Assembly (NCBI GenBank): GCA_002069945.1
Contig: MWCH01000005.1
Coordinates: 1-62,155, forward strand
Direction of reading: 5' to 3'
DNA: 62,155 bases
Source of the DNA: Microgenomates group bacterium ADurb.Bin219
GTDB lineage: Bacteria > Patescibacteriota > Microgenomatia > UM-FILTER-40-11
Both the position numbers and the translations under genes were made by a program. This document shows positions 1 to 61,935 of this stretch, one piece after another. Below the pieces are notes generated by a model. That model saw only the letters and a program-made list of their open reading frames with translations, was not told where the DNA came from and ran no database searches. Numbering within the stretch: position 1 is the first letter of the stretch; each line of letters begins with the position of its first letter.

Positions 1-756
1 TCGGTGGAAGAAATTAAAAACGAAAAATTAAAAATTAAAAATAAAGATTTAAGATTAATCGTTATTGAAAACAAAGAAAATGTGGGATTTGCGAGAGGGA
101 ACAATCAGGGAATAAAGGAAGCGAAAGGTGAATATATTATGCTTTTGAATTCTGATACCGTTGTTAAAAAAGGGTCAATTACCAAATTAATAGAATATTT
201 AGATACCCATCAGGAGATTGCCGTAGTCGGTCCAAGGCTTTTAAACGAAGACGGTTCAGCCCAAGCCAGTTGTGGTCGTTCCCCGAATATGAAAGTAGTA
301 GCACTGATGTTGTTTAAAGAGCATTTCGGCGGCAGCCGCTTTGTCCGTTGGTCGCCGGAGGAATCCACTGGGGTTGATTGGCTGATGGGAGCGGCTTTCA
401 TGGCCAGAAAAGAAGTTTTTCAAAAAATCGGCGGCCTTGACGAAAAACTGTTTATGTATATGGAAGAAGTAGAATGGTTTTACCGGGCAAAACAGGCAGG
501 ATTTAAAGCCTATTTTCTAAAAGAGGCGGAAATTGTTCATTTGGGCAGGGGAAGCTCAGTTTCGGGCAAAAAAGAACCGATTTTAAATATTTACAAAGGA
601 ATTCTTTATTTTTACCGCAAACACAAAAGCCCCATCGAGTTATTCATTTTACGGACAATGTTAAAATTAAAAGCACTTTTGGCTTTAATCTTAGGATGGT
701 TAAAGAACGATAAATATCTAAAGGAGACTTATGGCCAAGCTATTAAAATTTCTTAA
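1..756 (+). CDS. Glycosyltransferase family 2 (5' end cut by window edge)
   Basis: Frame open from base 1. Motifs NKENVGFARGNNQG, LLNSDT, VDWLMGAAF, YMEEVEWFYR are typical of GT2. Paralog of 4847..5836. Confidence 0.8.
   Translation, partial: SVEEIKNEKLKIKNKDLRLIVIENKENVGFARGNNQGIKEAKGEYIMLLNSDTVVKKGSITKLIEYLDTHQEIAVVGPRLLNEDGSAQASCGRSPNMKVVALMLFKEHFGGSRFVRWSPEESTGVDWLMGAAFMARKEVFQKIGGLDEKLFMYMEEVEWFYRAKQAGFKAYFLKEAEIVHLGRGSSVSGKKEPILNIYKGILYFYRKHKSPIELFILRTMLKLKALLALILGWLKNDKYLKETYGQAIKIS
11..59. repeat. Degenerate heptamer patch (7 units: AAATTAA AAACGAA AAATTAA AAATTAA AAATAAA GATTTAA GATTAAT)
   Basis: Read directly. Lies inside the 86-nt block that is identical to 5048..5133. Confidence 0.7.
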
Positions 757-2212
757 AAACGAGCAAATTTTATTTTTGGGAATCGGATTCCTTTTGTTCT
801 TTATTCCGATATATCCCAAATTTCCTTTAATCGCGATTAGAGAAACATATGTCAATATCAGGCTGGAGGATATCTTTTTTTCTTTATTGGTCGGAATTTT
901 TTTGATTCAGGTTGTCCTAAAAAAGGATTTTTCTTTGTTAAATAAATTTTTGACTAGGCTGATACTTTTTTTCTTTTGGACAGGTGCTCTTTCGGCGGTC
1001 AGTGGAATTCTTATCACCAAGAATGTAACTGCCCATTTGGTTTTTCTTCACTGGCTTAGAAGAGTTGAATACATTTTGCTTTTTTTTATTGCATATTCCA
1101 GTTTTAAAGATATTAAAAAATTAAAAACTTTTGGCTGGCTTCTTTTAATTTCTACTTTCGGAGTGATTATTTACGGACTTGGCCAAAAATTTTTTGGTTG
1201 GCCGGTAGTTTCAACTATGAATAAAGAATTTTCCAAGGGAATGATCTTGCGATTGACATGGTGGGCAAGAGTTAACTCCACTTTTGCCGGCCACTATGAT
1301 TTAGCCGCCTATATGGTTATGATATTGCCCTTGGCAACGATAGCCTTGATGATTAGCAAAAAAATAAAAGTTAAAATATTGATTTTAATTTTAGGTTTGC
1401 TTTGTTTTTACATTTTGCTTTTAACAGCCTCAAGAATTTCTTATGCGGCGTATTTGGCAGCGGTTTTGCTTGTTCTTCTTTTGGCAAATAAAAAATGGTG
1501 GATTATTCCCTTTTTGACCATTTCTCTTTTGGGAATGGTTTTTTCCCAGGACTTGGGTCAAAGGTATGCGGCAACCTTCAAAATAAATCTCTCCTTTTTG
1601 TCGGCGGATATCAAATTACCCAAATCAAAAGTCGCCATGGCGCCGACACCGACTCCGACAATGGTTCCGCTTGTTGTTTTGACCGAGGGACCGAAAAAGC
1701 CGGGAACACCAAAGCCGACATCAACTTTAACGCCGACGCCGACGCCAGAATCGGAGGCAACAGCTTCAGCCGAATATTTTGAACCAACCGAATTAGCAGT
1801 GGGACGATCAACGGATATTCGTTTAAAGGTTGAGTGGCCAAGGGCGATAAGAGCCTTTTTAAAAAATCCGCTTTTGGGAACAGGATATTCTTCAATTACT
1901 TTAGCTACTGATAACGATTATTTAAGGATACTGGGAGAAACGGGACTGTTGGGAGCAATAGTTTTTTTGGCGGTAATTCTTGAAATCGTCAGGGAGATCT
2001 TTTTCTTTTTGAGAGAAGGAAAAGGAAGCAAGGAAGCAAGGCTAATTGTGATTGGGGTTTGCGGAGCCGGTGTCGGCTATTTTTTAAATGCCGGTTTTAT
2101 AGACGTTTTTGAAGCCTCAAAAATTGCTTTTTTCTTTTGGATATTAATGGGAATTGCTCTTAAAATTATTGACATTGAAAGTTCAAAGTTCAAAGTTCAA
2201 AATTCAAAATGA
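731..2212 (+). CDS. O-antigen ligase/polymerase-like (Wzy_C-type) polytopic membrane protein with Pro/Thr-rich loop
   Basis: About 10 hydrophobic segments. TASRISYAAYLAA motif resembles the Wzy_C core (compare TYSRSSYLALIAG in 59166..60401). PT-rich loop APTPTPT...TPTPTPE. Start overlaps the upstream gene. Confidence 0.65.
   Translation: MAKLLKFLKNEQILFLGIGFLLFFIPIYPKFPLIAIRETYVNIRLEDIFFSLLVGIFLIQVVLKKDFSLLNKFLTRLILFFFWTGALSAVSGILITKNVTAHLVFLHWLRRVEYILLFFIAYSSFKDIKKLKTFGWLLLISTFGVIIYGLGQKFFGWPVVSTMNKEFSKGMILRLTWWARVNSTFAGHYDLAAYMVMILPLATIALMISKKIKVKILILILGLLCFYILLLTASRISYAAYLAAVLLVLLLANKKWWIIPFLTISLLGMVFSQDLGQRYAATFKINLSFLSADIKLPKSKVAMAPTPTPTMVPLVVLTEGPKKPGTPKPTSTLTPTPTPESEATASAEYFEPTELAVGRSTDIRLKVEWPRAIRAFLKNPLLGTGYSSITLATDNDYLRILGETGLLGAIVFLAVILEIVREIFFFLREGKGSKEARLIVIGVCGAGVGYFLNAGFIDVFEASKIAFFFWILMGIALKIIDIESSKFKVQNSK
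2177..2211. repeat. Heptamer tandem repeat (GAAAGTT CAAAGTT CAAAGTT CAAAATT CAAAATG)
   Basis: Read directly. Forms the C-terminal SKFKVQNSK tail and contains both the stop (2210..2212) and the next ATG (2209). Confidence 0.85.
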
Positions 2213-3643
2213 AAGGAAAAGTATTTTTGTTTTTTATATTGGCTTTAGGATTTTGTTCGCGATTGTATAAGATAAATATTCCTCTGGCCGATCACCATTC
2301 CTGGCGGCAAGCAGATACGGCGGCAGTAGCGAGAAATTATATTAAAGAAGGCTGGAATTTCTTTTTTCCGAAAGCGTGGATGAAATTGTTTTTTTATACG
2401 TGAATGATCCCTGTGTAATAATTGGTTCCAAGGAGTCTATAAATTAATCGGTGTTCGGGAAAAATGGGCGAGACTGGTTTCAATTATCTTTTCCCTGGGT
2501 TCAACCGTTTTTCTTTATTTTATTGCCAAAAATTTCTTTGGAGAAAAAACCGGTTTATTGTCAGCCTTTTTTTTCGCGATTTTGCCTTACAATATTTTTT
2601 ATTCGCGGGTTGTCCTTCCCGAGCCGATGATAATTTTCCTAACCTTGGGGATGTTTTATTATTTGATTAAGTGGCTTGATACCGATTCTTCAGTCTACTA
2701 TTTACCGTTTATTGTTTTCTCGTTGTTGTCGTTTTCCCAGAAAAGTTTTCCGCTGTTTTTTCTTTTGCCGCTGGCCTATCTTTTTTGGCAAAAGTTTGGC
2801 TTTAATTTGATTAAACAAAAGAAAATCTTTTTTTGGCTAATTGCTTCCTTTTTACCATTGATTTTGTGGCGTTGGTGGATAAGCCGCTTTCCCGAAGGTA
2901 TTCCGGCAAATTTGTGGCTGTTTAATCAAGGGAATATCCGTTTCAAGGGCGCTTTTTTTTGGTGGTTGTTTGCGGAAAGGATAGGGAAGTTGATTTTGGG
3001 TTATTGGGGTTTGCCTCTTTTGCTTTTGGGGGTTGTTTTAAAACCAAAAAAAGAGGGTTGGTTTTTCCATTTTTGGCTTTTAAGTCTTTTAATCTATTTG
3101 GCCGTTTTTGCCGCCGGAAATGTGACTCATGATTATTATCAAATTCCTTTAATCCCGATCTTTTGTATTTTTTTGGCGAAAGGCGCCAATTTTTTGCTTT
3201 TTGAAGTTAACAATAATTTTAATCGGTTTCTTTGCTCTTTGTGCTTTGTGCTTTGTACTGGTTTTATGGTGGCTTTTTCCTGGTATCAGGTTCGCGACTT
3301 TTATAATATTCAAAGCGGGGTCGATCTGGCGGGCCGCTGGATAGACGAGAATACCGACCAAAAGGCGCTAATTGTTACCGGAGACAGCAATGATGCGACC
3401 CTTTTATATAATTGCAACCGTTGGGGCTGGACCGCCGGCTATGCTTCTTCCTATCCCAACGAACCCCATGCCATTGAAGAATTAAGATCCAAAGGCGCCT
3501 CTTTTTATGTATCAACCAAATTTGATAAAAACTCCGATTTCGGAAAATATATGTTCAAAAATTATCAGCTTTTAAAGGAAACCGATCAGTTTGTTGCTTT
3601 TTCTTTAATAAACAATTACCAATTACCAATCACCAATCGCTAA
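2209..3643 (+). pseudogene. ArnT/PMT_2-like (GT39/GT83-type) membrane glycosyltransferase with the reading frame broken around 2365-2410
   Basis: The N-terminal 64 aa (SRLYKINIPLADHHSWRQADTAAVARNYIKEGWN) is the typical family start and ends at TGA 2401..2403. The family continues in another frame from 2408 (LCNNWFQGVYKLIGVREKWARLVSIIFSLGSTVFLYFIAKNFFGEKTGLLSAFFFAILPYN...) and is intact to 3643. T6 and T7 runs flank the break. Confidence 0.55.
3231..3258. repeat. Heptamer patch (TTTGCTC TTTGTGC TTTGTGC TTTGTAC)
   Basis: Read directly. Translated as LCSLCFVLC. Confidence 0.7.
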
Positions 3644-3647
3644 TCTC
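3613..3647. repeat. Heptamer patch (CAATTAC CAATTAC CAATCAC CAATCGC TAATCTC)
   Basis: Read directly. Gives the NNYQLPITNR tail and spans stop codon 3641..3643. Confidence 0.85.
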
Positions 3648-3651
3648 TATT

Positions 3652-4863
3652 ATGAAAATTTTAATGTTGACTCCTTATCTTCCTTTTCCGCCTTCTTCCG
3701 GCGGCCAGGTTCGCTCATATAATTTAATAAAGAATTTGGCCCAAAAGCACGAAATAACTTTGTTTTCTTTGATCAAAAAAGAAGAAGAGAAAAAATACGT
3801 TCTTGAATTGGAAAAATATTGTAAAAAGGTAAAAGTTTTTAAAAGATCTCCCCGGCCATGGACACTAAGAAATATTCTTAAAACCGGTTTCAGCTCTTAC
3901 CCGTTTTTAGTGATTAGAAATTCTTCGGACGAAGAGAAAGAGGCTTTAATTAACGAACTTAACGGTAATCTGTTCGACTTGATTCATGCGGAAACTTTTT
4001 ATGTTATGCCTCATTTGCCGGAAACAAAAACACCGATATTGTTAGTCGATCAAACGATTGAGTTTCAGGTATATCAGCATTTTGTGGAAAAAAGCAAGCT
4101 TTTTTTCCTTAAGCCTTTGTTATACCTCGATGTTCTTAAAATTAGATATTGGGAGTTAAAATTTTGGAAAAAAGCGAATAAAGTAGTTGCAGTATCGGAA
4201 GCCGATAAACAAAAAATGCTTTATTTGGAAAAAAATCTAGATGTCGGGGTTGTTCCCAACGGTGCCGGAGAAGATTTGATGAAGATTGGTAATTTCTCCA
4301 AAAACATTAAAGAGCCGGTAATTCTTTTTCAGGCAAATTTTTCCTGGTTGCAGAATATTGAAGCGGCTGCCAATCTCGCCAAGAAGGTTTTTCCCCTAAT
4401 CAAGAAAACGATTCCTCAAGCTAAATGCCGGATAGTTGGCCAGGGAGCGAGAGAAAAATTAAAAAAACTTTCCTCAGAAGACGTTCAGATAGTTGACCTG
4501 GAAACCGACGATACGGAAGGGGTTATGAAAGCTTATCGCCAGGCGAGTGTCTTTGTTGCTCCACTAGAGGGTCCGGGCGGCACCAGATTAAAGATTTTAG
4601 GAGCTATGGCTGCGAGTGTGCCGGTGATTACCACGACGGTTGGGATTGAAGGAATTGACGCCCATAATAATAAGGAAGTTCTAATCGCTGACTCCTGGAG
4701 TCTGATGGCAAAAAATTCCATTAAGCTGATTAGAAATCCGGATTTTTATCGGAGAATGACCAGTTCGGCCAGAAAATTAATTGAGGACAAGTATAGTTAT
4801 CAGAAGATTTCTTTAATTTTGGATAAATTTTATCGGGAGGTGGCCGGTGGAAGAAAAAATTGA
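3652..4863 (+). CDS. Glycosyltransferase family 4 (GT-B, Glycos_transf_1-type)
   Basis: MKILMLTPYLPFPPSSGGQVRSYNL N-terminus. C-terminal VFVAPLEGPGGTRLKILGAMAASVPVITT sugar-donor region. Confidence 0.8.
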   Translation: MKILMLTPYLPFPPSSGGQVRSYNLIKNLAQKHEITLFSLIKKEEEKKYVLELEKYCKKVKVFKRSPRPWTLRNILKTGFSSYPFLVIRNSSDEEKEALINELNGNLFDLIHAETFYVMPHLPETKTPILLVDQTIEFQVYQHFVEKSKLFFLKPLLYLDVLKIRYWELKFWKKANKVVAVSEADKQKMLYLEKNLDVGVVPNGAGEDLMKIGNFSKNIKEPVILFQANFSWLQNIEAAANLAKKVFPLIKKTIPQAKCRIVGQGAREKLKKLSSEDVQIVDLETDDTEGVMKAYRQASVFVAPLEGPGGTRLKILGAMAASVPVITTTVGIEGIDAHNNKEVLIADSWSLMAKNSIKLIRNPDFYRRMTSSARKLIEDKYSYQKISLILDKFYREVAGGRKN

Positions 4864-5836
4864 CCTTTCCATAATTATCCTTTCCTACAATACCAGAGAG
4901 CTTTTGAAAAAGTGCCTTGACTCGGTGATTAGTGATTTGCAATTAGCGGTTAGAGAGAAGGGAAGAGGTTTTGATACGCCACCAATCACCAATCACCAGC
5001 CACCAATCACCGAGATTATCGTGGTGGACAATGGATCAACTGACGGTTCGGTGGAAGAAATTAAAAACGAAAAATTAAAAATTAAAAATAAAGATTTAAG
5101 ATTAATCGTTATTGAAAACAAAGAAAATGTGGGCTTTGCGAGAGGAAATAATGTCGGCCTTAAAATCGCCAATGGCCGCTATATTTTGTTTTTAAATTCG
5201 GATACGGAGATTTTCCCGGGTTCTTTAAAAGAGGCGATTGATTTTATGGATTCGGATAAAACTATTGGCGCGATGACTCCCAAAACCGTCCTTTATTCCG
5301 GGAAAATAGATCCCGATTGTCATCGCGGCTTTCCGACTCCATGGGCGTCTTTGACTTACTTTCTCGGATTGGAGAAACTTTTTCCCAAGAGCCGCCTTTT
5401 CGGCCAATACCATAAATTTTATCAAGATTTGGACAAACCCCACGAAATTGATGCCGGATTCGGAACGTTTTTGCTGATAAGAAAAGAGGTATATAAAGCA
5501 ATCGGCGGCTGGGACGAGAGTTATTTTTTTTACGGTGAGGATTTGGATTATTTTTATCGCGTTAAACAAGCCGGCTGGAAAGTGATGTTTTATCCGAAGA
5601 TTCTTTTAAAGCACCATAAAGGAGGAAGTTCTGGACTAAGAAAAGAATCAAAAAAAATTACTTTGGCCAGCCGGGAAACCAGGATTAAAACCGCCCGCGC
5701 CTCAATTCGGGCGATGGAAATTTTTTACAAGAAGTTTTATAAAGACAAATATCCCAATTGGCTGACTTTTCTCGTATTGTCAGCTATCAAAGTAAAAGGC
5801 GTATTTAGATTATTGAAACACTATATTAATAAATAA
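4847..5836 (+). CDS. Glycosyltransferase family 2 carrying an in-frame repeat insertion
   Basis: LSIIILSYNT, VVDNGSTDGS, NVGFARGNNVG, FLNSDTE, FFYGEDLDYFYRVKQAGW. GTG start overlaps the upstream gene by 17 nt. Confidence 0.85.
   Translation: MEEKIDLSIIILSYNTRELLKKCLDSVISDLQLAVREKGRGFDTPPITNHQPPITEIIVVDNGSTDGSVEEIKNEKLKIKNKDLRLIVIENKENVGFARGNNVGLKIANGRYILFLNSDTEIFPGSLKEAIDFMDSDKTIGAMTPKTVLYSGKIDPDCHRGFPTPWASLTYFLGLEKLFPKSRLFGQYHKFYQDLDKPHEIDAGFGTFLLIRKEVYKAIGGWDESYFFYGEDLDYFYRVKQAGWKVMFYPKILLKHHKGGSSGLRKESKKITLASRETRIKTARASIRAMEIFYKKFYKDKYPNWLTFLVLSAIKVKGVFRLLKHYINK
4924..5014. repeat. 13-unit phase-coherent heptamer patch with inverted arms (GGTGATTAGTGATT ... AATCACCAATCACC)
   Basis: Units: GGTGATT AGTGATT TGCAATT AGCGGTT AGAGAGA AGGGAAG AGGTTTT GATACGC CACCAAT CACCAAT CACCAGC CACCAAT CACCGAG. 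Shares an 11-mer and a 24-mer with 6653..6771. Confidence 0.85.
5048..5133. repeat. 86-nt block identical to window positions 1..86
   Basis: Base-by-base comparison: first mismatch at 87/5134. Flanking coding sequence of the two GT2 paralogs is strongly diverged. Confidence 0.9.
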
Positions 5837-5903
5837 ATTGGAAGTTCGTTACAAGCTATCCCGATCTTAAACGAGATTGCAATATTACGAAATAAAAGAA
5901 AAA

Positions 5904-7208
5904 ATGAAAATCGGAATTGATTGCCGGATGATTGGATTGGAAAATGCCGGGATTGGACGTTATGTCCAGAATCTTGTAAATGAGTTATCGAAGATTGACA
6001 AGAATAACGTTTATGTTTTATTTGTTCGGAAAAATTTCTTAACGAAAATAAGTTCCAATTCCCAATCTCCCAGCCTGTGCCAAAGCTTCGGCGGGCAGGC
6101 AGTATCAAATATCAAATATGTAGCGGCAGAAGCAAGGCATTACTCCTTAAAAGAACAGGTTTTAATGCCCTATTTAATTCGGAAAGAGAAAATTGATTTA
6201 ATGCATTTTCCTCATTTTAACGTGCCGGTTTTTTATTTTGGCGATTATGTTTTGACCATTCACGATTTAATCAAACACTTTTCCCGCGGCCGGTCGACGA
6301 CGACCAAAAACTACTTGTTTTATTGGCTGAAGTATTTGGGTTATTTAATTGTTTTTCGACTGGCGGTTAAAAGAGCCAAAAATATTCTGGTTCCGTCAAA
6401 AACCGTCTCGCTTCAGTTGAGAAAAGCATATGGAATACCGGAAAGTAAAGTGGTAGTGACATATGAGGGAGCGGAAAGCAAGCAAAAAGCTACATCCTTA
6501 AAGGATTCCCCGAAGGGAGCAAATGAAAAGTTAAAAGTTGAAGAAGTATTGGAGAAATATAAAATCAAAAAACCATATTTATTATATGTCGGCAGCGTCT
6601 ATCCCCATAAAAATATCCCCAATCTCATAAGGGCAGTTACTATTCTTAACGAGTCAGCGACTAGCGATCGGCGGTTAGCGGTTAGTGGTCAATCGTTTGC
6701 CTCGTCGGAAGCGTTGAGTCAAGACGGTCCAACCACCAACCACCAACCACCAATCACCAATCACCAGCCATCGGTGAACCTTGTCATTGTTTGCGCCAGG
6801 AATATTTTTTGGGAAAGATTACAAAAAGAAGTTAAAAACCAAAAGGCAGAAAATTTTGTTAAGATGGTGGGTTTTGTTCCGGATGAGGAATTGAAATTAT
6901 TATATAGGGAGGCGGAAGTTTTTGTTTTTCCTTCTTTATCGGAGGGCTTTGGTTTGCCTGGCTTGGAGGCGATGGCAGCCGGGGTTCCGGTTTTGGCTTC
7001 GGACATTCCGGTTTTCAGAGAAATTTATCGGGAAGCAGCCAGTTATTTTAACCCCATCGATTCTCAAGAAATGGCAGAAAAAATTAAAGATCTGCTTATT
7101 GATAAGAAAAAACAAAATACTCTAAGAAAAGAAGGCTTTAAGATTTGCGATAAATACTCCTGGAAAAAGATGGCTGAGCAGACACTGAAAATATATCAAA
7201 GTATATAA
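5904..7208 (+). CDS. Glycosyltransferase family 4 with two in-frame repeat insertions
   Basis: KIGIDCRMIGLENAGIGRYVQNL start and FVFPSLSEGFGLPGLEAMAAGVPVLASD motif. ATG 5904 preferred over the track start 5877, which adds only MQYYEIKEK. Confidence 0.85.
   Translation: MKIGIDCRMIGLENAGIGRYVQNLVNELSKIDKNNVYVLFVRKNFLTKISSNSQSPSLCQSFGGQAVSNIKYVAAEARHYSLKEQVLMPYLIRKEKIDLMHFPHFNVPVFYFGDYVLTIHDLIKHFSRGRSTTTKNYLFYWLKYLGYLIVFRLAVKRAKNILVPSKTVSLQLRKAYGIPESKVVVTYEGAESKQKATSLKDSPKGANEKLKVEEVLEKYKIKKPYLLYVGSVYPHKNIPNLIRAVTILNESATSDRRLAVSGQSFASSEALSQDGPTTNHQPPITNHQPSVNLVIVCARNIFWERLQKEVKNQKAENFVKMVGFVPDEELKLLYREAEVFVFPSLSEGFGLPGLEAMAAGVPVLASDIPVFREIYREAASYFNPIDSQEMAEKIKDLLIDKKKQNTLRKEGFKICDKYSWKKMAEQTLKIYQSI
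6055..6117. repeat. 9-unit heptamer patch (63 nt, 21 codons) with central imperfect palindrome around AAGCTT
   Basis: Units: CCAATTC CCAATCT CCCAGCC TGTGCCA AAGCTTC GGCGGGC AGGCAGT ATCAAAT ATCAAAT. Translated as SNSQSPSLCQSFGGQAVSNIK. Confidence 0.75.
6653..6771. repeat. 17-unit phase-coherent heptamer patch (GTxAGCG type drifting to CAACCAC/CAATCAC)
   Basis: Single 7-nt register over 119 nt, read directly. 6747..6770 is identical to 4979..5002 and 6675..6685 is identical to 4943..4953. Confidence 0.85.
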
Positions 7209-7251
7209 AAAACCGAAAAAACTTCGTTCGTAATATTTTTATTCAAAATTT

Positions 7252-7280
7252 TTGACAATTAAGTCCTGTTGTGCTATTTA
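7252..7280 (+). promoter_or_regulatory. Putative sigma-70-type promoter (TTGACA-17 nt-TGcTATTTA)
   Basis: TTGACA at 7252..7257, 17-nt spacer, TG-extended TATTTA at 7275..7280. Lies about 50 nt upstream of the first zinc-ribbon ORF. Confidence 0.45.
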
Positions 7281-7332
7281 TGAGGTATTCTGTTGGCAAG
7301 AGAGGGTCAAATAAAAAGAAAGGAGAGAAGGA

Positions 7333-7569
7333 ATGGACGAGTGTAAGTGTCATTTGACTGGGTTGGCTAAGGACTGGGTTTTTTGCCCCGAATGTGGAGA
7401 AAGGCTGAAGGAAGAAAAGCCTGCTTGTCGGCCGGTAACCGTTGAGGGCAAGATCAGTCGGTATTGCCCCGTTTGCCGAAAGAATCGCTCGGTTATCCAC
7501 TATGCAGACGGGCAACCTTTACACAATCCGAACTTCTGTCCGGAATGTGGATCGACTTTGTTGAAATAA
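7333..7569 (+). CDS. Small multi-zinc-ribbon protein (78 aa)
   Basis: Three CxxC pairs (CPECG, CPVC, CPECG). AAAGGAGAG Shine-Dalgarno sequence 6 nt upstream. Confidence 0.6.
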   Translation: MDECKCHLTGLAKDWVFCPECGERLKEEKPACRPVTVEGKISRYCPVCRKNRSVIHYADGQPLHNPNFCPECGSTLLK

Positions 7570-7589
7570 GAAAAAAGAAGGGGGAGAGA

Positions 7590-7862
7590 ATGAGGAAGGG
7601 AATAGGGAAGAAAACAAGGGACAAGAAGGTTTGCCGGGGCTGCTTACTTAAAGTTAAGGAGGAGTGGAAATATTGCCCCCGGTGCGGGAGCGATCTCGTT
7701 ATCCAAGGCCATATTTTAAAAGAGTTATTGGAGAAGACTCAGTCGGGAAAGTGGTTTTGCCCGCATTGCCTGAATATCAAAGACGCGATCAAAACACCCA
7801 GGGGGAAGTTTGTCCCGAAGTATTGTACCGATTGCGGTATTCAGCTTCAATATCGTGTTTGA
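7590..7862 (+). CDS. Small multi-zinc-ribbon protein (90 aa), paralog-like of 7333..7569
   Basis: CRGC, CPRCG, CPHC, CTDCG. AAGGGGGAG Shine-Dalgarno directly upstream of ATG 7590. The track ORF from 7464 overlaps the previous gene and is not needed. Confidence 0.6.
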   Translation: MRKGIGKKTRDKKVCRGCLLKVKEEWKYCPRCGSDLVIQGHILKELLEKTQSGKWFCPHCLNIKDAIKTPRGKFVPKYCTDCGIQLQYRV

Positions 7863-7882
7863 TTAAGAGAAACAAAGGCTGA

Positions 7883-7920
7883 CAACTTGCCTGGTCGAAA
7901 GACAAAAAGTTGCTTTTTTT
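7883..7920 (+). terminator. Putative intrinsic terminator
   Basis: CAACTT (7883..7888) pairs with AAGTTG (7907..7912). An inner GTC-GAAA-GAC hairpin is present, followed by C plus T7 (7914..7920). Confidence 0.5.
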
Positions 7921-7941
7921 ATGGTAAAATCGCTTCAATAG

Positions 7942-8901
7942 ATGAATATTTTCCGTTGTGATCTTTGTCCGAGAAATTGCAGAATTAACCGGAAAAAAGG
8001 AATCGGTTTTTGTAAAGCTGACGATAAAATTAAGATTTCCTGGTTTGGACATCATTTTGGCGAGGAACCTCCTATCTCCGGTCCATCTCGTCTTCGGCGA
8101 AGTCGAGGCGGTTCGGGAACAATTTTTTTCAGCAATTGCAATTTAAAGTGTGTTTTTTGTCAAAATTGGCAGATCTCACAGCCCTCCTTCGCCCTCCGAT
8201 TCGGAGGGCTTCGGAAGGGTAAAGAACTAAATCAAGATAAAAGTTATGATGTGAATGGGATAGTAGAGATGATGCTGAAACTTCAAGAGGAAGGCAGCCT
8301 GAATATTAATTTAGTCTCGCCCACGGTTTGGTCATATTGGCTAGAAAAGGTAATTATTACGGCCAAAAGGAAAGGATTGAAGATCCCCATTGTTTGGAAT
8401 ACAAACGGTTATGAGAAAACGAAAACTTTAAAAGAATTTGAAGGCTTGGTGGATATTTATTTACCCGATTATAAATACGATAACGAAAAACTGGCCATCA
8501 AATATTCTTCGGCTCCCGGATATCCCGAAGTTGCCCGAAAAGCAATTTTGGAAATGCAAAGGCAGGTTGGCGATTTACAAATTGACCAGAAAGGCAAGGC
8601 GATCAGGGGATTGATCGTCCGGCATTTGATTTTACCCGGGCAAATAGAAAATACCAAAAATTGCCTCCGTTTCGTTAAAACAATTTCCGATCGGGTTCAC
8701 CTTTCCCTAATGACACAATATAATCCTCTTTATCGGGCAAGAGAGTTTGCCGAAATTAACCGGCCGATTGGCAAACAAGAGTTTGAGGCGGCCAATAAAC
8801 TTGTTGAAGGATTAGGTATAAAATACGGTTGGGTTCAAGAATTTGGGGGAGCAGTCAAATGCTTTAGCCCGGATTTTGAAAAAGAAAATCCGTTCGGTTA
8901 A
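7942..8901 (+). CDS. Radical SAM protein, PflX-like (pyruvate formate-lyase activase-related)
   Basis: FFSNCNLKCVFCQNW (CxxxCxxC) motif. N-terminal CDLCPRNCRINRKKGIGFC. No SPASM-like C-terminal Cys cluster. Confidence 0.75.
   Translation: MNIFRCDLCPRNCRINRKKGIGFCKADDKIKISWFGHHFGEEPPISGPSRLRRSRGGSGTIFFSNCNLKCVFCQNWQISQPSFALRFGGLRKGKELNQDKSYDVNGIVEMMLKLQEEGSLNINLVSPTVWSYWLEKVIITAKRKGLKIPIVWNTNGYEKTKTLKEFEGLVDIYLPDYKYDNEKLAIKYSSAPGYPEVARKAILEMQRQVGDLQIDQKGKAIRGLIVRHLILPGQIENTKNCLRFVKTISDRVHLSLMTQYNPLYRAREFAEINRPIGKQEFEAANKLVEGLGIKYGWVQEFGGAVKCFSPDFEKENPFG
8087..8107. repeat. 21-nt near-perfect palindrome inside the radical SAM ORF
   Basis: CTCGTCTTCGGCGAAGTCGAG has one off-centre mismatched pair (T8091/T8103) against its reverse complement. 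Encodes part of PSRLRRSRG. Confidence 0.7.
8181..8219. repeat. Nested palindrome inside the radical SAM ORF
   Basis: GCCCTCC occurs twice (8181, 8191). An 8-bp stem GCCCTCCG/CGGAGGGC (8191..8198 / 8202..8209) has a 3-nt loop. Outer partner is GGAAGGG. Encodes PSFALRFGGLRKG. Confidence 0.75.
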
Positions 8902-8935
8902 GATGGTTATTATTAAGAGATTAACGAATTGAAAG

Positions 8936-10030
8936 ATGAAAGTGGCTTTGGTTTACGACCGGGTTAACAAATGGGGAGGAGCAGAGCGATTATTGCTGGC
9001 CTTGCACCAAATTTGGCCCGAAGCTCCGCTTTATACCTCTGTTTATGATTCGGAAAGGGCTCCCTGGGCTAAGGTTTTTGAGGTGAGGACCTCTTTTTTA
9101 CAAAGAATTCCCTTGGCCAAAGAAAAACATGAATTCTTTGCCCCGTTAATGCCCTTGGCTTTTGAGTCTTTTAATTTTGACGAATTTGATTTGGTAATTT
9201 CCATAACCAGCGAGGCGGCCAAGGGGATAATTACTAGACCGAAAACAAAGCATCTTTGTTATTGCTTGACGCCGACCCGGTATTTATGGAGCGGGTATAA
9301 AGAATATTTTAGAACCAGCACTCAGCGTATAGCGTCTAGCTCGTTAGTCAAATATTTAAGAAAATGGGATTTAGTTGCGGCCCAAAGGCCGGATGCTTAT
9401 TTTGCCATTTCCCAGACCGTTCAAAAAAGGATCAAAAAATACTATGGCAGGGAAAGTGATGTGATTTATCCACCAGTCGATTTGGATAAATTTAGAACAA
9501 ATATCAAATATCAAATATCAAATATCAAATATTATTTAGTAGTATCGAGGTTGGTGCCGTATAAAAAGGCAGACCTGGTGGTGAAAGTTTTTAATAAGTT
9601 GGGTTGGAATCTAAAGATAATTGGCGTAGGGAGCGAATTAAGGAAGCTAAAAAGAATGGCCAATAGCAATATTGATTTTTTGGGCCAGTTGACAGACGAG
9701 CAGCTGATTAGTTACTATCAAAATTGTCGGGCGGTTGTCTTTGCCCAGGAAGAAGATTTTGGTTTGGTCCCGCTTGAGGCTCAGGCTTGCGGAAAACCGG
9801 TAATCGCTTTTAGGGCCGGAGGAGCAGCGGAAACAATTAAAGATCGGATAACCGGAGTTTTTTTTGATCAACAAACTCCCGAATCGCTGATTGAAGCGGT
9901 AAAAAAAGCCGACCTGATGATTAAAAATTCAAAATTAAAACCCGAAGACTGTCGCAAACAGGCAGAAAAATTCGGGATGAAAGAATTTTTGGCAAGGTTT
10001 AAACAAATTGCCGAGGAAAATGGCAGATAA
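8936..10030 (+). CDS. Glycosyltransferase family 4
   Basis: MKVALVYDRVNKWGGAERLL start. VFAQEEDFGLVPLEAQACGKPVIAFRAGGAAETI motif. Confidence 0.8.
   Translation: MKVALVYDRVNKWGGAERLLLALHQIWPEAPLYTSVYDSERAPWAKVFEVRTSFLQRIPLAKEKHEFFAPLMPLAFESFNFDEFDLVISITSEAAKGIITRPKTKHLCYCLTPTRYLWSGYKEYFRTSTQRIASSSLVKYLRKWDLVAAQRPDAYFAISQTVQKRIKKYYGRESDVIYPPVDLDKFRTNIKYQISNIKYYLVVSRLVPYKKADLVVKVFNKLGWNLKIIGVGSELRKLKRMANSNIDFLGQLTDEQLISYYQNCRAVVFAQEEDFGLVPLEAQACGKPVIAFRAGGAAETIKDRITGVFFDQQTPESLIEAVKKADLMIKNSKLKPEDCRKQAEKFGMKEFLARFKQIAEENGR
9315..9349. repeat. Heptamer patch (CCAGCAC TCAGCGT ATAGCGT CTAGCTC GTTAGTC)
   Basis: Read directly. Same TAGCG word family as 6653..6687. Confidence 0.65.
9497..9531. repeat. 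Heptamer tandem repeat (ACAAATA + TCAAATA x4)
   Basis: Four perfect units, read directly. Translated as TNIKYQISNIKY. ATCAAAT x2 also occurs at 6104..6117. Confidence 0.9.
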
Positions 10031-11123
10031 TAATCATCTTTACGCGCTCGTTATTTGCGGCGGAGCCGGAACTCGGCTTTGGCCTCGCTCCAGACGGAAA
10101 ACACCGAAGCAGTTTCTGGAAAATTTTTTCGGGAAAACGACCTTGTTCCGGCAGACAATTGACCGCGCCCTTCTTTTAACCGAGAGCAACAGAATCATTA
10201 TTGTTACCATTGGCGATTATGTTGACGAAATAATTAAATACGCTCCGGAAATTCTACCCCGAAATATTATTGCCGAGCCCATTGGCAGAAACACTGCTTT
10301 GGCGGTCGGCTTGGGAACTGCTTATATTAAGAAGGCCGATCCGGAAGCGATTGTGATGACTTTCTGGTCGGACGCGGCGGTAACCGAAAACGAGAGTTTT
10401 GCCGAGAGATTGAAGCTCGCCGCGGAGGCAGCCTGTAGGGGTAATTATTTGGTAACGGTTGGCATAAAACCAACCTTTGCCCATACGGGATTGGGCTATA
10501 TTGAAACCGGAAATCAACTTGATCAAAATACAGGAGAAATTTACAAAGTAATTTCTTTTAAGGAAAAACCGGAGCTGAAGTTGGCCCAGGAATTTTTGGA
10601 GAAAGGAAATTTCTATTGGAATACGGGAATTTTTACCTGTTCGGTCAAAAGTCTTTGGGAAGCCTTCGGCAAATATTCTCCCAAGCTTTTTAACGGTCTG
10701 GAAAAAATTTATCTTGCCTTGTCCGGCCCCGCGGAGCAACAGACGATAAAGGAAATCTACGAATCAGCTGAGGATTTGGCGATTGATAACGCCGTTTGGG
10801 AAAAGGCGGACAATTTATTGTTGGTGCCCGCGACTTTTGGCTGGAGCGACATTGGCGATTGGCAGGTAGCTTACGACTTGGGCGAGAAAGACGCGGAAGG
10901 CAATGCCGTGACGATTTTCGGCGGAAAGGGAAAACATTTTGGTTTGGAAACCAAAAATTGCCTTATCCAAGCTGAAAATCGGACGATTGCGACCATTGGT
11001 TTATCCGATTTGGTAATCATTGAAACAGAAGATACGGTTTTAATTTGCCCGAGACAAAGGGCCCAAGAGGTTAAAAAAATCGTTACTCTCTTGAAGGAAA
11101 AGGAAGAAAAAGACCTGTTGTGA
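10020..11123 (+). CDS. manC: Mannose-1-phosphate guanylyltransferase-like nucleotidyltransferase
   Basis: LYALVICGGAGTRLWPRSRRKTPKQF sugar-nucleotidyltransferase signature and GLGYIE. ATG 10020 with a GAGGAA Shine-Dalgarno is preferred over TTG 10008. Confidence 0.7.
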   Translation: MADNNHLYALVICGGAGTRLWPRSRRKTPKQFLENFFGKTTLFRQTIDRALLLTESNRIIIVTIGDYVDEIIKYAPEILPRNIIAEPIGRNTALAVGLGTAYIKKADPEAIVMTFWSDAAVTENESFAERLKLAAEAACRGNYLVTVGIKPTFAHTGLGYIETGNQLDQNTGEIYKVISFKEKPELKLAQEFLEKGNFYWNTGIFTCSVKSLWEAFGKYSPKLFNGLEKIYLALSGPAEQQTIKEIYESAEDLAIDNAVWEKADNLLLVPATFGWSDIGDWQVAYDLGEKDAEGNAVTIFGGKGKHFGLETKNCLIQAENRTIATIGLSDLVIIETEDTVLICPRQRAQEVKKIVTLLKEKEEKDLL

Positions 11124-11131
11124 TTTAAATT

Positions 11132-11767
11132 ATGTATGCGATTTTAAAAAGAGCAATTGACATTGTCGGCTCTTTGGTGGGAATCATTATTTTTTTCCCG
11201 GTTTGTTTTTTGTTTTCCCTGGCAATGCAGATTGAGTCTCCCGGTTCGGTTTTTGCCGATACTCCCAAGAGGATCGGCAAGGATGGCCGGCTTTTCCATT
11301 TATATAAATTAAGATCGATGATTCCCAACGCCCACCGGCTTTTGCATGAAGACAAGCGGTTCCGAAAGCTTTTGCAGGAGTATAAAAAATCAAGCTATAA
11401 GTTGCATGAAGATCCCCGGGTTACCCGGGTAGGCAAATTTATCAGGAAACATTCAATTGACGAATTACCTCAATTCATCAATATTCTTAAAGGGGAGATG
11501 AGCTTGGTCGGGCCACGGCCGTATTATCAGGATGAGCTGGCGGAACAGCAGGAAAAATACCCGGAAACAAAGCCCTTGGTTGATGAAGTTTTGAAAATAA
11601 AGCCCGGTCTTACCGGCGAATGGCAGGTTTCCGGACGTTCCGAAGTCAATTTTGACAAGAGAATTAAAATGGATGCCGATTACGCCAAAAGGCAATCAAT
11701 TATTTATGATATTATTATTTTATTGAAGTCTCCCTTGGCCATGATTACCGGCAAGGGAGCAGTTTAA
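11132..11767 (+). CDS. Polyprenyl-phosphate sugar-1-phosphate transferase (bacterial sugar transferase, WbaP/WcaJ C-domain type)
   Basis: One N-terminal TM segment. Motifs DELPQFINILKGEMSLVGPRP and KPGLTGEWQVSGRSE. Confidence 0.85.
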   Translation: MYAILKRAIDIVGSLVGIIIFFPVCFLFSLAMQIESPGSVFADTPKRIGKDGRLFHLYKLRSMIPNAHRLLHEDKRFRKLLQEYKKSSYKLHEDPRVTRVGKFIRKHSIDELPQFINILKGEMSLVGPRPYYQDELAEQQEKYPETKPLVDEVLKIKPGLTGEWQVSGRSEVNFDKRIKMDADYAKRQSIIYDIIILLKSPLAMITGKGAV

Positions 11768-11797
11768 ACAATAAATTAATATTTTTTAAGGAGAAAA

Positions 11798-13807: not shown

Positions 13808-13833
13808 TATTGGCTATTGGAGATCAGATATTA
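13806..13833. repeat. Heptamer patch (GATATTG GCTATTG GAGATCA GATATTA) across a stop codon and spacer
   Basis: Read directly. The reverse complement CCAATAGCCAATATC belongs to the CCAAT word family. Confidence 0.6.
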
Positions 13834-13834
13834 A

Positions 13835-14398: not shown

Positions 14399-14447
14399 AA
14401 GATTTCTGGCTTGAATATTTATTAAACCTAATCTAGAATTCAATTTA

Positions 14448-16552: not shown

Positions 16553-16645
16553 CTTCTTTTTCTGCCAGTTGGTTTTAATTATCTTCCTTTCTAAAATTCT
16601 TTCTTTTGATGTTTTGCCCCTTGACAAGTATTTATAAAATAGCTC

Positions 16646-16682
16646 AAAATGGAAAAAAGTGGCATAAAGTGGTGATTAGTGT
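16646..16682 (+). promoter_or_regulatory. Putative MraZ operator: four direct repeats at exact 10-bp spacing
   Basis: AAAATGG (16646), AAAGTGG (16656), AAAGTGG (16666), TTAGTGT (16676). They sit 13 nt upstream of the mraZ ATG and downstream of TTGACA (16621..16626). Confidence 0.6.
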
Positions 16683-16694
16683 CACAAACAAAAT

Positions 16695-44805: not shown

Positions 44806-44879
44806 GCTCGCGTAGCTCAGTTGGTTAGAGCGTTCGGTTCACATCCGAAAGGTCCCCGGTTCGATTCCAGGCGCGAGCA
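44806..44879 (+). tRNA. tRNA-Val (anticodon CAC)
   Basis: Hand-folded. Acceptor GCTCGCG/CGCGAGC, D-arm GCTC/GAGC, anticodon arm TTCGG-TTCACAT-CCGAA, T-arm CCCGG-TTCGATT-CCAGG (one C-A mismatch), discriminator A. No encoded CCA. Confidence 0.85.
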
Positions 44880-49953: not shown

Positions 49954-50928
49954 ATGATGAAGATTTCATTTATTGCAACCGTTTTAAACGAAGAAAAGAC
50001 AATTGATTCTTTTTTGGCTTCATTGGCTAACCAGTCAAAATTGCCGAATGAAATTATCATTGTTGATGCTGGATCTGTTGATAAAACAATAACAAAAATT
50101 AAAAAAGAAAAATTAAAAATGAAAAAAAATAAGATTATAATTGAGCTTTTGGAAAGAAAAGGTTTTAATCGGTCACAAGGAAGGAACGAAGCGATTAAAA
50201 AAGCAAAAGGAGAAATTATTGTAACTTCAGACGCAGGTTGTCTTTTGGATAAAGAGTGGCTTAAGGAAATAACCAAACCCTTTTTAAAAGAAGACGGACC
50301 GGCAGTGGTTTCCGGATTTTATTTGCCGACCGGCGAATCGCTTTTCCAAAAAGTTTTAGGCCAATTGACTTCGGTTTCTTTGAAAAATATTGATCAAAAA
50401 AATTTTTTACCCTCTTCACGCTCTCTCGCTTTTAAAAAAAATGCCTGGACTAAAGTTGGCGGTTATCCGGAAGAATTAAATTATTGTGAAGATCTTGTTT
50501 TTGATTTAAGGCTTAAAAATGCCGGTTTAGAATTTATTTTTGCTTCTAAGGCCATAGTTTTTTGGCCCCAAAGAAAAAATTTTTTTCAGGCCATTCGCCA
50601 ATTTTTTAATTATAGCGTTGGTGACGGAATGGCAGGGGAACAAGGGCCACATTATAAAAAACTGCGGTGGCAATTGTTACTGCTGGTAGGGTTGGGAATA
50701 TTGGGAGCGCTGGGATGGTGGCAGGAATTGGGTATCGCTTTTTTTATATTTTTTGTTTTTAAAGCCCTGAGATTAACCTCCGGCTTTATCGGTAACTCTT
50801 CTTTTGGTTTTAACCATCTTTTGTTTTTTCTGTCTTCCTTTTTTTTGATCCCCTTTTTAAATCTGGCGGTTATGTTAGGATTTTTGGCGGGTATATTTAA
50901 AAAATCATTAATAAAAGACAAAAAATGA
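49954..50928 (+). CDS. Glycosyltransferase family 2 with C-terminal TM segments
   Basis: ISFIATVLNEEKTI, IIIVDAGSVDKT, VTSDAGC. Hydrophobic tail. Confidence 0.75.
   Translation: MMKISFIATVLNEEKTIDSFLASLANQSKLPNEIIIVDAGSVDKTITKIKKEKLKMKKNKIIIELLERKGFNRSQGRNEAIKKAKGEIIVTSDAGCLLDKEWLKEITKPFLKEDGPAVVSGFYLPTGESLFQKVLGQLTSVSLKNIDQKNFLPSSRSLAFKKNAWTKVGGYPEELNYCEDLVFDLRLKNAGLEFIFASKAIVFWPQRKNFFQAIRQFFNYSVGDGMAGEQGPHYKKLRWQLLLLVGLGILGALGWWQELGIAFFIFFVFKALRLTSGFIGNSSFGFNHLLFFLSSFFLIPFLNLAVMLGFLAGIFKKSLIKDKK
50094..50128. repeat. A-rich heptamer patch (AAAAATT AAAAAAG AAAAATT AAAAATG AAAAAAA)
   Basis: Read directly. Same relative position in this GT2 as the 11..59 / 5058..5106 patch in the other GT2 paralogs. 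Confidence 0.55.
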
Positions 50929-61115: not shown

Positions 61116-61187
61116 AGCCGGAGGCGGGATTTGAACCCGCGACTTGCTGTTTACGAAACAGCTACTCTACCACTGAGTTACCCCGGC
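61116..61187 (-). tRNA. tRNA-Thr (anticodon CGT)
   Basis: Hand-folded on the minus strand. Acceptor GCCGGGG/CTCCGGC (one G-T pair), anticodon arm GCTGT-TTCGTAA-ACAGC, T-arm GCGGG-TTCAAAT-CCCGC, discriminator T. Confidence 0.85.
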
Positions 61188-61208: not shown

Positions 61209-61283
61209 TGGAGCGGCGGAAGGGAATTGGACCCTCGACCTTCTCCTTGGGAAGGAGACATTCTACCACTGAACTACCGCCGC
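61209..61283 (-). tRNA. tRNA-Gly (anticodon CCC), CCA encoded
   Basis: Acceptor GCGGCGG/CCGCCGC, anticodon arm TCTCC-TTCCCAA-GGAGA, T-arm GAGGG-TCCAATT-CCCTT, discriminator T then CCA. The T-loop has C at position 55. Confidence 0.8.
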
Positions 61284-61895: not shown

Positions 61896-61900
61896 CTCCT

Positions 61901-61935
61901 TTGGGGCAGGAGAATTGGGGCAGAGATTTTTGGCA
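61901..61935. repeat. Heptamer/14-mer patch (TTGGGGC AGGAGAA TTGGGGC AGAGATT TTTGGCA)
   Basis: Read directly. Lies in the spacer between tRNA-Asp and the LysM gene. Confidence 0.55.

Follow-up and report, generated by a model that had tools for sequence, protein, structure and literature searches.

Heptanucleotide repeat arrays within genes of a Microgenomates bacterium: probable slippage products in variable protein loops

Heptanucleotide repeats are the most abundant class of long simple sequence repeats (LSSRs) in most prokaryotic genomes according to Mrazek, Guo and Shah (2007, PNAS), whose work, as summarized in two later papers (PMC4679880, PMC4692102), offers a slippage hypothesis in which the polymerase grips about 7 nt, and places repeats whose unit is not a multiple of three mainly outside genes. 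The subject here is a set of patches with a 7-nt period in a 62,155-nt stretch of DNA, hereafter the window, from Microgenomates group bacterium ADurb.Bin219 (GenBank assembly GCA_002069945.1, contig MWCH01000005.1, positions 1 to 62,155). A typical patch is an array of 4-5 copies of a 7-nt unit, about 30 nt in all, located in a variable, low-confidence surface loop, an inter-domain linker, or a C-terminal tail of the encoded protein. With a probability that we place at roughly two in three, these patches are heptanucleotide microsatellites, that is, slippage products that diversify protein loops, and not a regulated switch.

Several other repeat systems invite comparison. Rickettsia palindromic elements (RPEs) are families of 100-150 bp with conserved sequence that lie in frame in genes, housekeeping genes included, and are tolerated on protein surfaces. 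In Escherichia coli K1, the neuO gene of prophage CUS-3 carries a phase-variable variable-number tandem repeat (VNTR) of AAGACTC in 3-53 copies, with a mode of about 20; its product is full length only at copy numbers divisible by three, and OFF alleles are found in 66% of genomes (PMC13001214). TAACTGA direct repeats occur in marine Beggiatoaceae, cyanobacteria, and some Bacteroidetes in 2-6 copies and with no evident transfer mechanism (PMC4679880), while the cyanobacterial short tandemly repeated repetitive (STRR) sequences and the GGGAATC or GGGGA(T/C)T repeats of Xanthomonas and Nostoc comprise a few fixed, G-rich, intergenic units with the potential to form G-quadruplexes (PMC4692102).

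Period-7 arrays in the window

Patch counts were compared with 50 shuffles in which codons were permuted within 300-nt blocks; the score of a site is the number of equal-or-better clusters expected per shuffled window, and a site is called individually significant when that number is below 0.2. Under this null, 21-nt segments with at least 16 lag-7 matches formed 11 patches versus 0.30 expected, and the stricter cut-off of at least 18 of 21 left 7 patches versus 0.02 in the shuffles. Lag-7 identity across the window is 0.2735, as against 0.261-0.264 at lags 5, 8, and 10, none of them a multiple of three, and among the lags tested the excess is limited to 7 and its multiples 14 and 21; 7 is also the commonest period (8 arrays) reported by Tandem Repeats Finder (TRF). 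The excess over a composition-matched null proposed in a first, sequence-only reading of this DNA is confirmed by the patch counts and by TRF relative to shuffles, and 7-nt head-to-tail copies beyond the expectation from composition, the property by which heptanucleotide LSSRs are recognized, are present in the window.

That reading had listed 21 sites, 19 with a 7-nt and two with an 8-nt register. Ten of the former and both of the latter are individually significant, but nine heptamer sites fall within chance, namely 6055-6117 (71 expected), 9315 (14.5), 13806 (6), 15751 (5), 17136 (13), 22184 (4.4), 29341 (1.7), 60396 (5.8), and 61901 (138). The last of these, 61901-61935, has a lag-7 identity of only 0.21 and adjoins a tRNA gene; one of the nine, 13806-13833, does differ between strains by a clean indel of one 7-nt unit. 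The inverted CAAAGTT reported at 17206 does exist, as AAACTTTGAACTT at 17199-17219 between mraZ and the next gene, but at about two units it is inseparable from chance. Site 11-59 is significant (0 expected) but not independent, since positions 1-86 of the window are identical to 5048-5133 and the site duplicates an unlisted array at 5058-5105. TRF also reports arrays at 9920-9940, 20749-20767, and 11202-11216 that were absent from the list. For the patches of 13 and 17 units, a single register with a drifting unit had been described; instead, each proves to be two approximately inverse arrays with a non-periodic spacer of about 40 nt between them, so that one drifting register is not a well-defined property of 4924-5014 or 6653-6771.

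The claim that the CACCAAT/CAATCAC word recurs across four genes stands, with 31 matches versus 4.65 expected; the four genes fall within 11 kb and their arrays all encode P-I-T-N-H/Y-Q. All strong arrays except one lie within open reading frames (ORFs) and are read through in frame, and two cross stop codons as C-terminal tails (2174-2211 and 3613-3647). In-frame translation as odd heptad peptides, also proposed earlier, holds up, each predicted 7-residue peptide corresponding exactly to the unit's seven cyclic codons, and housekeeping genes do stand beside glycosyltransferases among the hosts. The arrays described below are on the + strand of the window.

Comparison with homologs points to at least two lineage-specific insertions, one in the family 2 glycosyltransferase (GT2) gene at 4847-5836 relative to its paralogs, and one in the family 4 glycosyltransferase (GT4) gene at 5877-7208, whose product exceeds its orthologs by 19-60 aa, the excess falling within the patches. 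In the GT2 gene, a composite in-frame insert at 4921-5014 (aa 25-56; peptide ...PPITNHQPPIT) is made up of a left arm, GGTGATTAGTGATT, that belongs in part to the native coding sequence for DSVIS, then a spacer, and a right arm of about five CACCAAT units that is the inverse of the left; the arms (4921-4951 and 4984-5014) are 71% complementary, with 93% over a 14-nt core, and 47 of 84 positions match at lag 7 in 4924-5014 (0.005 expected). The insertion relative to paralogs that had been claimed here is upheld, with about 18-24 extra residues between CLDSVIS and EIIVVDN compared with four paralogs. It appears as a gap in the Pfam profile alignment and is identical in a 97% relative. An imperfect array of about seven AAATTAA units follows at 5058-5105 (aa 71-87, EIKNEKLKIKNKDLRLI); its exact copy at 11-58 lies at the contig start in a partial GT2 paralog (4-756), and the TRF score is 54 at both places. 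Beyond the 86 identical nucleotides the two paralogs diverge to about 40% protein identity, and the shared tract is either a gene-conversion tract between paralogs or a contig-end assembly overlap. Another assembly's contig breaks at the same place, where protein P0009 of the comparison sets (proteins numbered P####, loci or contigs L###) begins IKNKDLRL. At a position homologous by alignment to 5058-5105, the GT2 gene at 49954-50928 has an A-rich patch of period 7/14 at 50094-50128 (TKIKKEKLKMKKN; TRF period 14, score 59; 21 of 28 lag-7 matches, 0.025 expected), which is regarded as low complexity because all lags from 5 to 11 reach at least 0.53.

The 434-residue product of the GT4 gene at 5877-7208 has about 40 residues more than its paralogs and compares with 355-415 residues for nearly all of 120 listed relatives, one longer relative (P0093, 548 residues) bearing an extra Pfam domain. 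In an alignment of 115 orthologs the length variation is concentrated in three loops, which are the patches 6055-6117 and 6653-6771 and the inter-domain linker, and an AlphaFold model based on that alignment, with a mean predicted local distance difference test (pLDDT) score of 88, falls below 60 only in the three patch segments. Loop 3 (6653-6771, aa 259-299, peptide ...PTTNHQPPITNHQPS) consists of five GTTAGCG-type units on the left, a spacer of about 42 nt, and (CAACCAC)x3(CAATCAC)x2 on the right, the left array being an approximate inverse of the right (64 of 112 lag-7 matches, 0 expected; pLDDT 46-60). It has no counterpart in the paralogs and measures 13-23 residues in orthologs versus 54 in the window. 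The length classes of this loop are 16 and 23, with 31 sequences at 23, and the peptides PITNHQS, PISNIQY, and KLQITNY of the GT4 family each correspond exactly to the seven cyclic codons of one heptamer. Loop 1 (6055-6119) comprises (CCAATTC)x2, a GC-rich hairpin element at 6063-6101, and (TATCAAA)x2.4; lag-7 identity over the whole span is not significant, TRF detects 6103-6119, and pLDDT is below 50 at residues 53-65 of P0025. As a separate observation, a 27-nt in-frame segment with two short palindromes, CATCCTTAAAGGATTCCCCGAAGGGAG at 6493-6519, lies in a GT4 linker directly upstream of an (AAAAGTT)x2 array and is missing from the relative L301.

The second GT4 gene with arrays, at 8936-10030, has a perfect (CAAATAT)x5 at 9497-9532 in its inter-domain linker (aa 188-199, TNIKYQISNIKY; TRF 100% matches, score 70; 27 of 28 lag-7 matches, 0 expected), and the homologous linker contains heptamer-coded peptides in many orthologs. 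A short (ATTAAAA)x3 array detected by TRF lies further on in the same gene at 9920-9940 (peptide IKNSKLK).

Other arrays form tails or internal segments of neighboring genes. About five CAAAGTT units at 2174-2211 cover the final 12 codons plus the stop codon of ORF 731-2212, assigned by Pfam to the Wzy_C-type, O-antigen-ligase-like family (peptide IESSKFKVQNSK, then stop; TRF score 55-56; 25 of 28 lag-7 matches, 0 expected). ORF 2558-3643, which has zero Pfam matches, carries about four CTTTGTG units at 3231-3258 (peptide LCSLCFVLC; TRF 100% matches; 18 of 21 lag-7 matches, 0.005 expected) and, across its C-terminal tail and stop at 3613-3647, about five CAATTAC/CAATCAC units of the CACCAAT family (peptide NNYQLPITNR, then stop; 24 of 28 lag-7 matches, 0 expected). 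In recO (13835-14398), a (CACCAAT/CACTAAT)x5 array at 14212-14248 (aa 126-138, LSPITNYQSLITN; 22 of 28 lag-7 matches, 0.01 expected) takes the place of a normal inter-helix segment with no added length, and the Pfam RecO_C model aligns through it without a gap. The RecO protein itself, like that of all close relatives, is 187 residues long, and it matches RecO_N and the first ~66 of 157 RecO_C model positions, which makes it truncated relative to Pfam RecO_C. Just upstream, between ORF 11798-13807 and recO, lies the intergenic (TATTGGC/TATTGGA)-type patch 13806-13833.

Orthologs, relatives, other phyla, and the setting of the window

The isoleucyl-tRNA synthetase gene ileS (38658-41573) contains a decayed array of about seven AAACTTA units at 40719-40769 (aa 688-704, ETQNLNFKTNNENLKLK; TRF 63% matches; 26 of 42 lag-7 matches, 0.18 expected). 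The window IleS is at most 66% identical to that of any GTDB species representative, and its closest relatives are metagenome-assembled genomes (MAGs) of Microgenomates (OP11), for example Shapiro-, Curtiss-, Collier-, Levy-, and Daviesbacteria, which places the window in a genome of the Patescibacteria, or Candidate Phyla Radiation (CPR). The clade was sampled as 1.39 Mb around ileS of 80 Microgenomates genomes and 0.27 Mb of division and cell-wall (dcw, ftsI) loci. TRF reported 35 period-7 and 30 period-14 arrays in the ileS loci versus 0.4 and 5.2 in shuffles, with units almost all different, and 8 period-7 arrays in the dcw loci, where 7 was again the top period. Together with those of the window, 37 of 43 period-7 arrays in Microgenomates loci (86%) lie well inside ORFs of at least 100 aa, whereas in a control of 80 gammaproteobacterial ileS loci the figure was 5 of 16, the arrays coming from six genomes only and belonging mostly to intergenic families. 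Within the Microgenomates sample ileS itself holds 33 of the 65 period-7/14 arrays in 17% of the DNA, at five loop positions.

Loop 429 of IleS, between EWYIAMD and TLREQM, has about 7-10 residues in most genomes, and sequences with a KPS/RPS-type prefix show lengths of about 9-11, 15-17, and 24-25, the extra residues being heptamer-coded. The loop at 691-706 has a modal length of 31-32 residues, compared with 37 in the window and 35-39, 42, or 45 in genomes with arrays; such arrays occur in eight other genomes (TRF period 7 in L069, L018, L078, L047, L031, L075, and L170, interrupted in L001), with 35-45 residues where measured. Loop lengths thus tend to step by about 7 residues, or 21 nt and three units. 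At position 860, on the other hand, length is constant and the arrays are in the same phase across genomes, with the units AAATTCG x5 in L001 (35 of 35 bases periodic), AAATTTG in L002, AAATTTT in L025, L034, and L077, and AAAGTTC in L009. In any one genome the non-conserved codons at this position are bound by the 7-nt rule, yet from genome to genome they are not the same, which argues for concerted evolution rather than protein-level conservation. Ordinary conserved sequence would be indicated if distant orthologs carried the same segments, and IleS and GT4 orthologs at 55-65% identity do have heptamer peptides at the same loops, but these are encoded by different homogeneous units. On this comparison the heptamer loop sites are best read as long-lived repeat loci and not as ordinary conserved sequence. 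Other in-frame palindromic inserts were seen in ileS of L011 and L020, in the loop equivalent to window aa 691-706, and of L008 and L009; one ileS palindromic insert, CATTCTGGGGAGCGAAGCGACTCCAGAATC (peptide HSGERSDSRIDSGQVL), is common to two Curtissbacteria and occurs twice in L020, so the 691-706 loop accepts several kinds of short palindromic DNA.

Close relatives, a small sample of two to seven per gene at 91-100% identity, revealed no unit-number or frameshift variants of the coding arrays in GT2 4847, GT4 8936, the Wzy-like gene, or RecO. The Wzy-like array is constant in length at 94-100% identity, and the RecO array is the same length in six relatives at 91-99%, with three substitutions in L300. 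This metagenome contig, 95% identical over window positions 9228-16539, has the arrays at 9497 and 9920 unchanged, and a metagenome scan for unit-number variants of the 9497 array produced one contig, of the same length. L300 does lack one 7-nt unit (TATTGGC) at 13808, the only clean small indel in 7.3 kb; indels of 21 nt at 10440 and 11 nt at 13909 were set aside as scaffold-gap artefacts that adjoin N runs. The more distant L301, at 87-92% nucleotide identity, has a perfect (CAATCAC)x5 versus the (CAACCAC)x3(CAATCAC)x2 of the window and (AAAGTTA)x3 at the site of (CAAATAT)x5, and is without 27-nt and 30-nt segments beside arrays. These differences point to unit turnover and to amplification of a variant unit. 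Unit-sized length polymorphism between related genomes, as known of LSSRs, is therefore present in the 13808 indel and the L301 array differences, and in the 13808 spacer, where no reading frame stands in the way, slippage by a single unit can be seen. The arrays appear to be stable among strains and, at the scale of species or genera, to turn over faster than their flanks.

Heptamer arrays are not specific to the CPR. More than 119 stretches of GTDB genomes contain an exact 24-mer of (AAAGTTC)x3.4, the unit of patch 2177; the phyla represented are Acidobacteriota (Pyrinomonadaceae), Verrucomicrobiota, Bacteroidota, Cyanobacteria, Planctomycetota, Chloroflexota, and Nitrospirota as well as several Microgenomates. 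It occurs even in genomes of 60-69% G+C as a compositional outlier, which weakens the idea that AAATT-type units are mere AT-rich composition. Of 127 such arrays, 73 fall within ORFs of 100 codons or more, every one of them in sense orientation because the antisense strand contains TGA, and among the proteins affected are LeuRS (four cases), Mfd, UvrA, an AddB-like nuclease, transketolase, and NamZ. In two LeuRS orthologs from Pyrinomonadaceae an array occupies the same site, with AAAGTTC in one and AAAGTCC in the other, and at a second site the two differ by exactly 7 residues. The same 0.84 Mb of (AAAGTTC)n loci contains 128 further period-7 arrays of many units.

The window as a whole has a G+C content of 31-47% and nearly all of its ORFs on the + strand, with a glycan-synthesis cluster at 1-11 kb and 48-60 kb, and, besides recO and ileS, a class II aminoacyl-tRNA synthetase gene and an mraZ-to-ftsA division and cell-wall cluster. 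An Rfam gathering scan detected only four tRNA genes (44806-44879 on the + strand; 61116-61187, 61212-61283, and 61962-62035 on the - strand), with zero overlap with the patches. Counts from promoter and terminator scans of 1-18000 equal those of shuffles, so no link to the patches emerges. Of the arrays with an 8-nt register, that at 35562-35638 (period 8/24, AT-rich, GATTAAAA-type; TRF scores 59-73; 38 of 48 lag-8 matches, 0 expected) runs across the stop of ORF 34439-35596 into the spacer, and that at 23745-23813 (period 8/10, A-rich) is intergenic between ORFs 22388-23764 and 23817-24710; in the latter, which TRF also finds, 23767-23806 has 24 of 32 lag-8 matches (0.005 expected), yet every lag reaches at least 0.48. 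Both arrays contain the 16-nt word GATTAACAAATTAAAA, exact at 23767-23782 and 35599-35614 and with at most two mismatches at 8919-8934 and 15698-15713, directly upstream of gene starts (6 matches in the window versus 0.68 expected). L301 has 32 extra bases, equal to two more copies of the word, upstream of its GT4 ortholog, and the word may be a promoter or leader motif with changing copy number. L300 has about 650 bases more than the window upstream of mraZ (window 16553-16620).

How the arrays may arise

The mechanism that these observations favor most is slipped-strand mispairing at a preferred 7-nt offset, which would both create and renew the arrays. It accords with the abundance of heptanucleotide repeats in prokaryotes and with the polymerase-based slippage hypothesis of the 2007 work, as summarized in PMC4679880 and PMC4692102. 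Within genes, selection would tolerate a net change only if it amounted to three units (21 nt, 7 residues), or else homogenization that left the length as it was, and either of these only in loops, linkers, and tails. The outcome would be repeat loci that renew themselves where insertions are tolerated and that are probably close to neutral. By template switching within a strand, an array could be copied inversely and so give rise to the quasi-palindromic composites, and GC-rich hairpin elements would sometimes come to be nested between arrays.

Several points weigh against this account. Stepping by 7 residues is not a rule, as loop 429 has mostly about 7-10 residues across the whole family and GT4 loop 3 differs by 10 residues between the window and P0026. 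One-unit slippage in an essential gene would pass through lethal frameshift intermediates, and a three-unit jump from a seed of one or two units has to be assumed. The modal perfect length is about 30-33 nt inside and outside ORFs alike, for which frame selection alone is insufficient; array density in ileS exceeds that of its flanks about 5-fold, which slippage does not explain; and the account gives no reason for 7 nt. The CACCAAT unit in four window genes and (AAAGTTC)n across phyla could reflect spread rather than independent birth. Finally, no coding array changes length in the few close relatives, and slippage within ORFs is read from deeper comparisons only. A more ambitious version, which we entertain only tentatively, would posit that some process of replication or repair, with a 7-nt register built into it, seeds arrays and typically expands them by about three units (21 nt, or about two helical turns) per step, and thus acts as a generator of 7-residue loops across phyla in IleS, LeuRS, UvrA, Mfd, and glycosyltransferases. 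Arrays would then also serve as landing or nucleation sites for GC-rich hairpins, and the whole would amount to a distinct and so far undescribed mode of loop evolution, especially active in Microgenomates, Pyrinomonadaceae, and Verrucomicrobia.

The arrays might instead be carried by small mobile or copy-spreading palindromic elements, akin to RPEs or miniature inverted-repeat transposable elements (MITEs), that insert in frame and have heptamer repeats or a GC-rich hairpin core as arms. This is unlikely as an explanation of the arrays, although part of the evidence speaks for it. Two inserts of the window, 4921-5014 and 6653-6771, pair an array with its approximate inverse and so form quasi-palindromes, and inverse array pairs are common in other phyla, those of (AAAGTTC)n often lying 20-150 nt apart (L184, L208, L220, L248, L275; also L181). 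A 17-nt hairpin core, GCTTCGGCGGGCAGGCA, is exact in the window GT4 gene at 6063-6101 and in the ileS insert of L075, and recurs with at most two mismatches in L165 and L167. The GC-rich element around it, with a consensus of about CCCGCCTTCGCCAAGGCTTCGGCGGGCAGGCA (6063-6101 in the window; ~7405-7440 in L075; ~100-135 in L165 and ~1900-1935 in L167, both on the - strand), has a single copy in the window; in all four of these Microgenomates genomes it is flanked by heptamer arrays and keeps the frame, though the host genes differ, and it has the look of a small element of RPE type that moves or spreads by copying. The clustering of the CACCAAT unit in four genes within 11 kb, the 86 identical nucleotides, array included, in GT2 paralogs otherwise about 40% identical, and (AAAGTTC)n in genomes of 60-69% G+C likewise fit spread by copying. 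However, most arrays have no hairpin, inverted partner, or shared termini; units differ almost site by site, as in the 128 arrays with many units; and array edges merge with native coding sequence (DSVIS at 4921, KYxI at 9497). At orthologous sites the arrays share a phase with units 1-2 nt apart, which fits in-situ evolution and not repeated insertion. In L001 (CCTGCCTGCCGGCAGGCAAGG) and L061, arrays are interrupted by related GC-rich inserts; removal of the hairpin from L001 restores a perfectly periodic array and marks the hairpin as a later arrival. DNA folding gave z = -2.1 for 4921-5014 and z = -0.9 for 6645-6780, and the simple arrays (2160-2225, 3595-3660, 9480-9550, 14195-14265) have no fold beyond that of shuffles (z >= -0.07), so that a hairpin role for plain arrays is rejected. 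A direct repeat resembling a target site duplication, GAAGTAGTT, flanks the LeuRS array of L204; nothing comparable was found at other arrays, and this candidate was discarded.

Because seven is not a multiple of three, gain or loss of a single unit could switch a glycosyltransferase gene on or off, and the sequence-only reading had raised such contingency behavior for the glycan genes. The densest array cluster does lie in the glycan region at 1-10 kb, where (CAAATAT)x5 is perfect, a single unit separates two strains at an intergenic array, and neuO is a working example of a translated heptanucleotide array (PMC13001214). Yet the window arrays have at most 5-6 perfect units, the longest perfect runs being 5 (9497-9532) and 3+2 (6729-6763); they are mostly internal or C-terminal rather than 5'; and the same kind of array occupies essential genes, namely ileS in this clade and those for LeuRS and UvrA in other lineages. 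Since the relatives at 91-100% identity, two to seven per gene, show no frameshift or unit-number alleles of the coding arrays, a contingency role is not supported, and we consider it quite improbable.

Selection at the protein level for heptad peptides, as beta-hairpin or coiled-coil repeats and with no process at the DNA level, is more doubtful still. The peptides alternate hydrophobic and polar residues (KFEIRNS, SKFKVQN, NIKYQIS) and recur at the same loop positions, and the IleS 860 segment is constant in length; but the alternation follows arithmetically from any unit that contains TT, and these segments have low AlphaFold confidence. Such selection would give at most a 21-nt period, whereas non-conserved codons are also 7-nt periodic, in 35 of 35 bases in L001, and arrays cross stop codons or occur in spacers (2174-2211, 3613-3647, 13806-13833). 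Chance, low-complexity composition, or assembly artefact, despite the nine listed sites within chance expectation, the A-rich sites 50094 and 23767 where every lag is raised, and the first 86 contig nucleotides that duplicate an internal segment, is already refuted for the ten strong sites and has next to no standing against 11 patches versus 0.3 expected and against the presence of the same arrays in independent assemblies, at lengths shorter than a sequencing read and with reading frames preserved.

Place among known repeat systems

If the slippage account is true, a 7-nt bias would constantly be adding stretches of 7 residues to surface loops of conserved proteins, aminoacyl-tRNA synthetases among them, in several phyla. 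It would account for part of the odd low-complexity insertions in CPR proteins, the arrays would cause alignment and annotation artefacts in protein families derived from MAGs, and they would be natural strain-typing markers. It would also provide a handle on the dominance of heptanucleotides among prokaryotic long simple sequence repeats, since arrays in ORFs would record the length changes that are both produced and tolerated. The present evidence reveals no new regulatory system. As the sequence-only reading had supposed, the phenomenon seems not to have been reported for this kind of genome: literature searches on heptamer repeats together with CPR, Patescibacteria, or Microgenomates returned nothing relevant. 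The repeat class is known, but short, translated, loop-bound arrays that persist at orthologous sites with homogenized units and sometimes host hairpins appear to be undescribed in the searchable literature.

Among the analogies, that with the STRR and GGGAATC repeats, suggested from sequence at the outset, is confined to 7-nt tandem arrays that sometimes form inverse pairs; it fails on unit identity and location, as the window units are A/T- or C/A-rich, diverse, and translated, mostly within ORFs. The TAACTGA repeats resemble (AAAGTTC)n in that one heptamer recurs across unrelated phyla, but TAACTGA is mainly intergenic, upstream of starts, with one dominant unit per genome, whereas many units are found here and mainly in ORFs. 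The array of neuO is closer in kind, being a translated 7-nt repeat in the coding sequence of a glycan-modifying enzyme and encoding a heptad peptide. The window arrays differ in having no more than 5-6 perfect copies, no unit variation in close relatives, and essential hosts as well; neither a long perfect array nor ON and OFF alleles in close strains, as in neuO, were found in this small sample.

The RPE analogy, likewise proposed earlier, may hold for the quasi-palindromic composite inserts but does not for the plain arrays. In-frame insertion relative to homologs is seen in GT2 4847 and GT4 5877, and a likeness to RPEs fits the two composites (4921-5014, 6653-6771) as well as the GC-rich hairpin of 6063-6101; most patches, however, are simple tandem arrays that have neither sequence nor termini in common, and in place of a dispersed conserved family the patches share only 7-nt words.

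The heptanucleotide LSSRs, as far as they are characterized in the summaries of the 2007 work, are the nearest relatives, with diverse tandem 7-nt units that are over-represented and phylogenetically patchy. The arrays of the present analysis depart from them in that 86% lie in ORFs, at orthologous loops, in 4-5 units, and with homogenized units specific to lineages. To our knowledge, no CPR genomes were available in 2007. The tendency of LSSRs toward non-coding locations is thus not shared by these arrays, but it is a tendency and not a strict criterion, so that they are better regarded as an atypical member of the class than as lying outside it.

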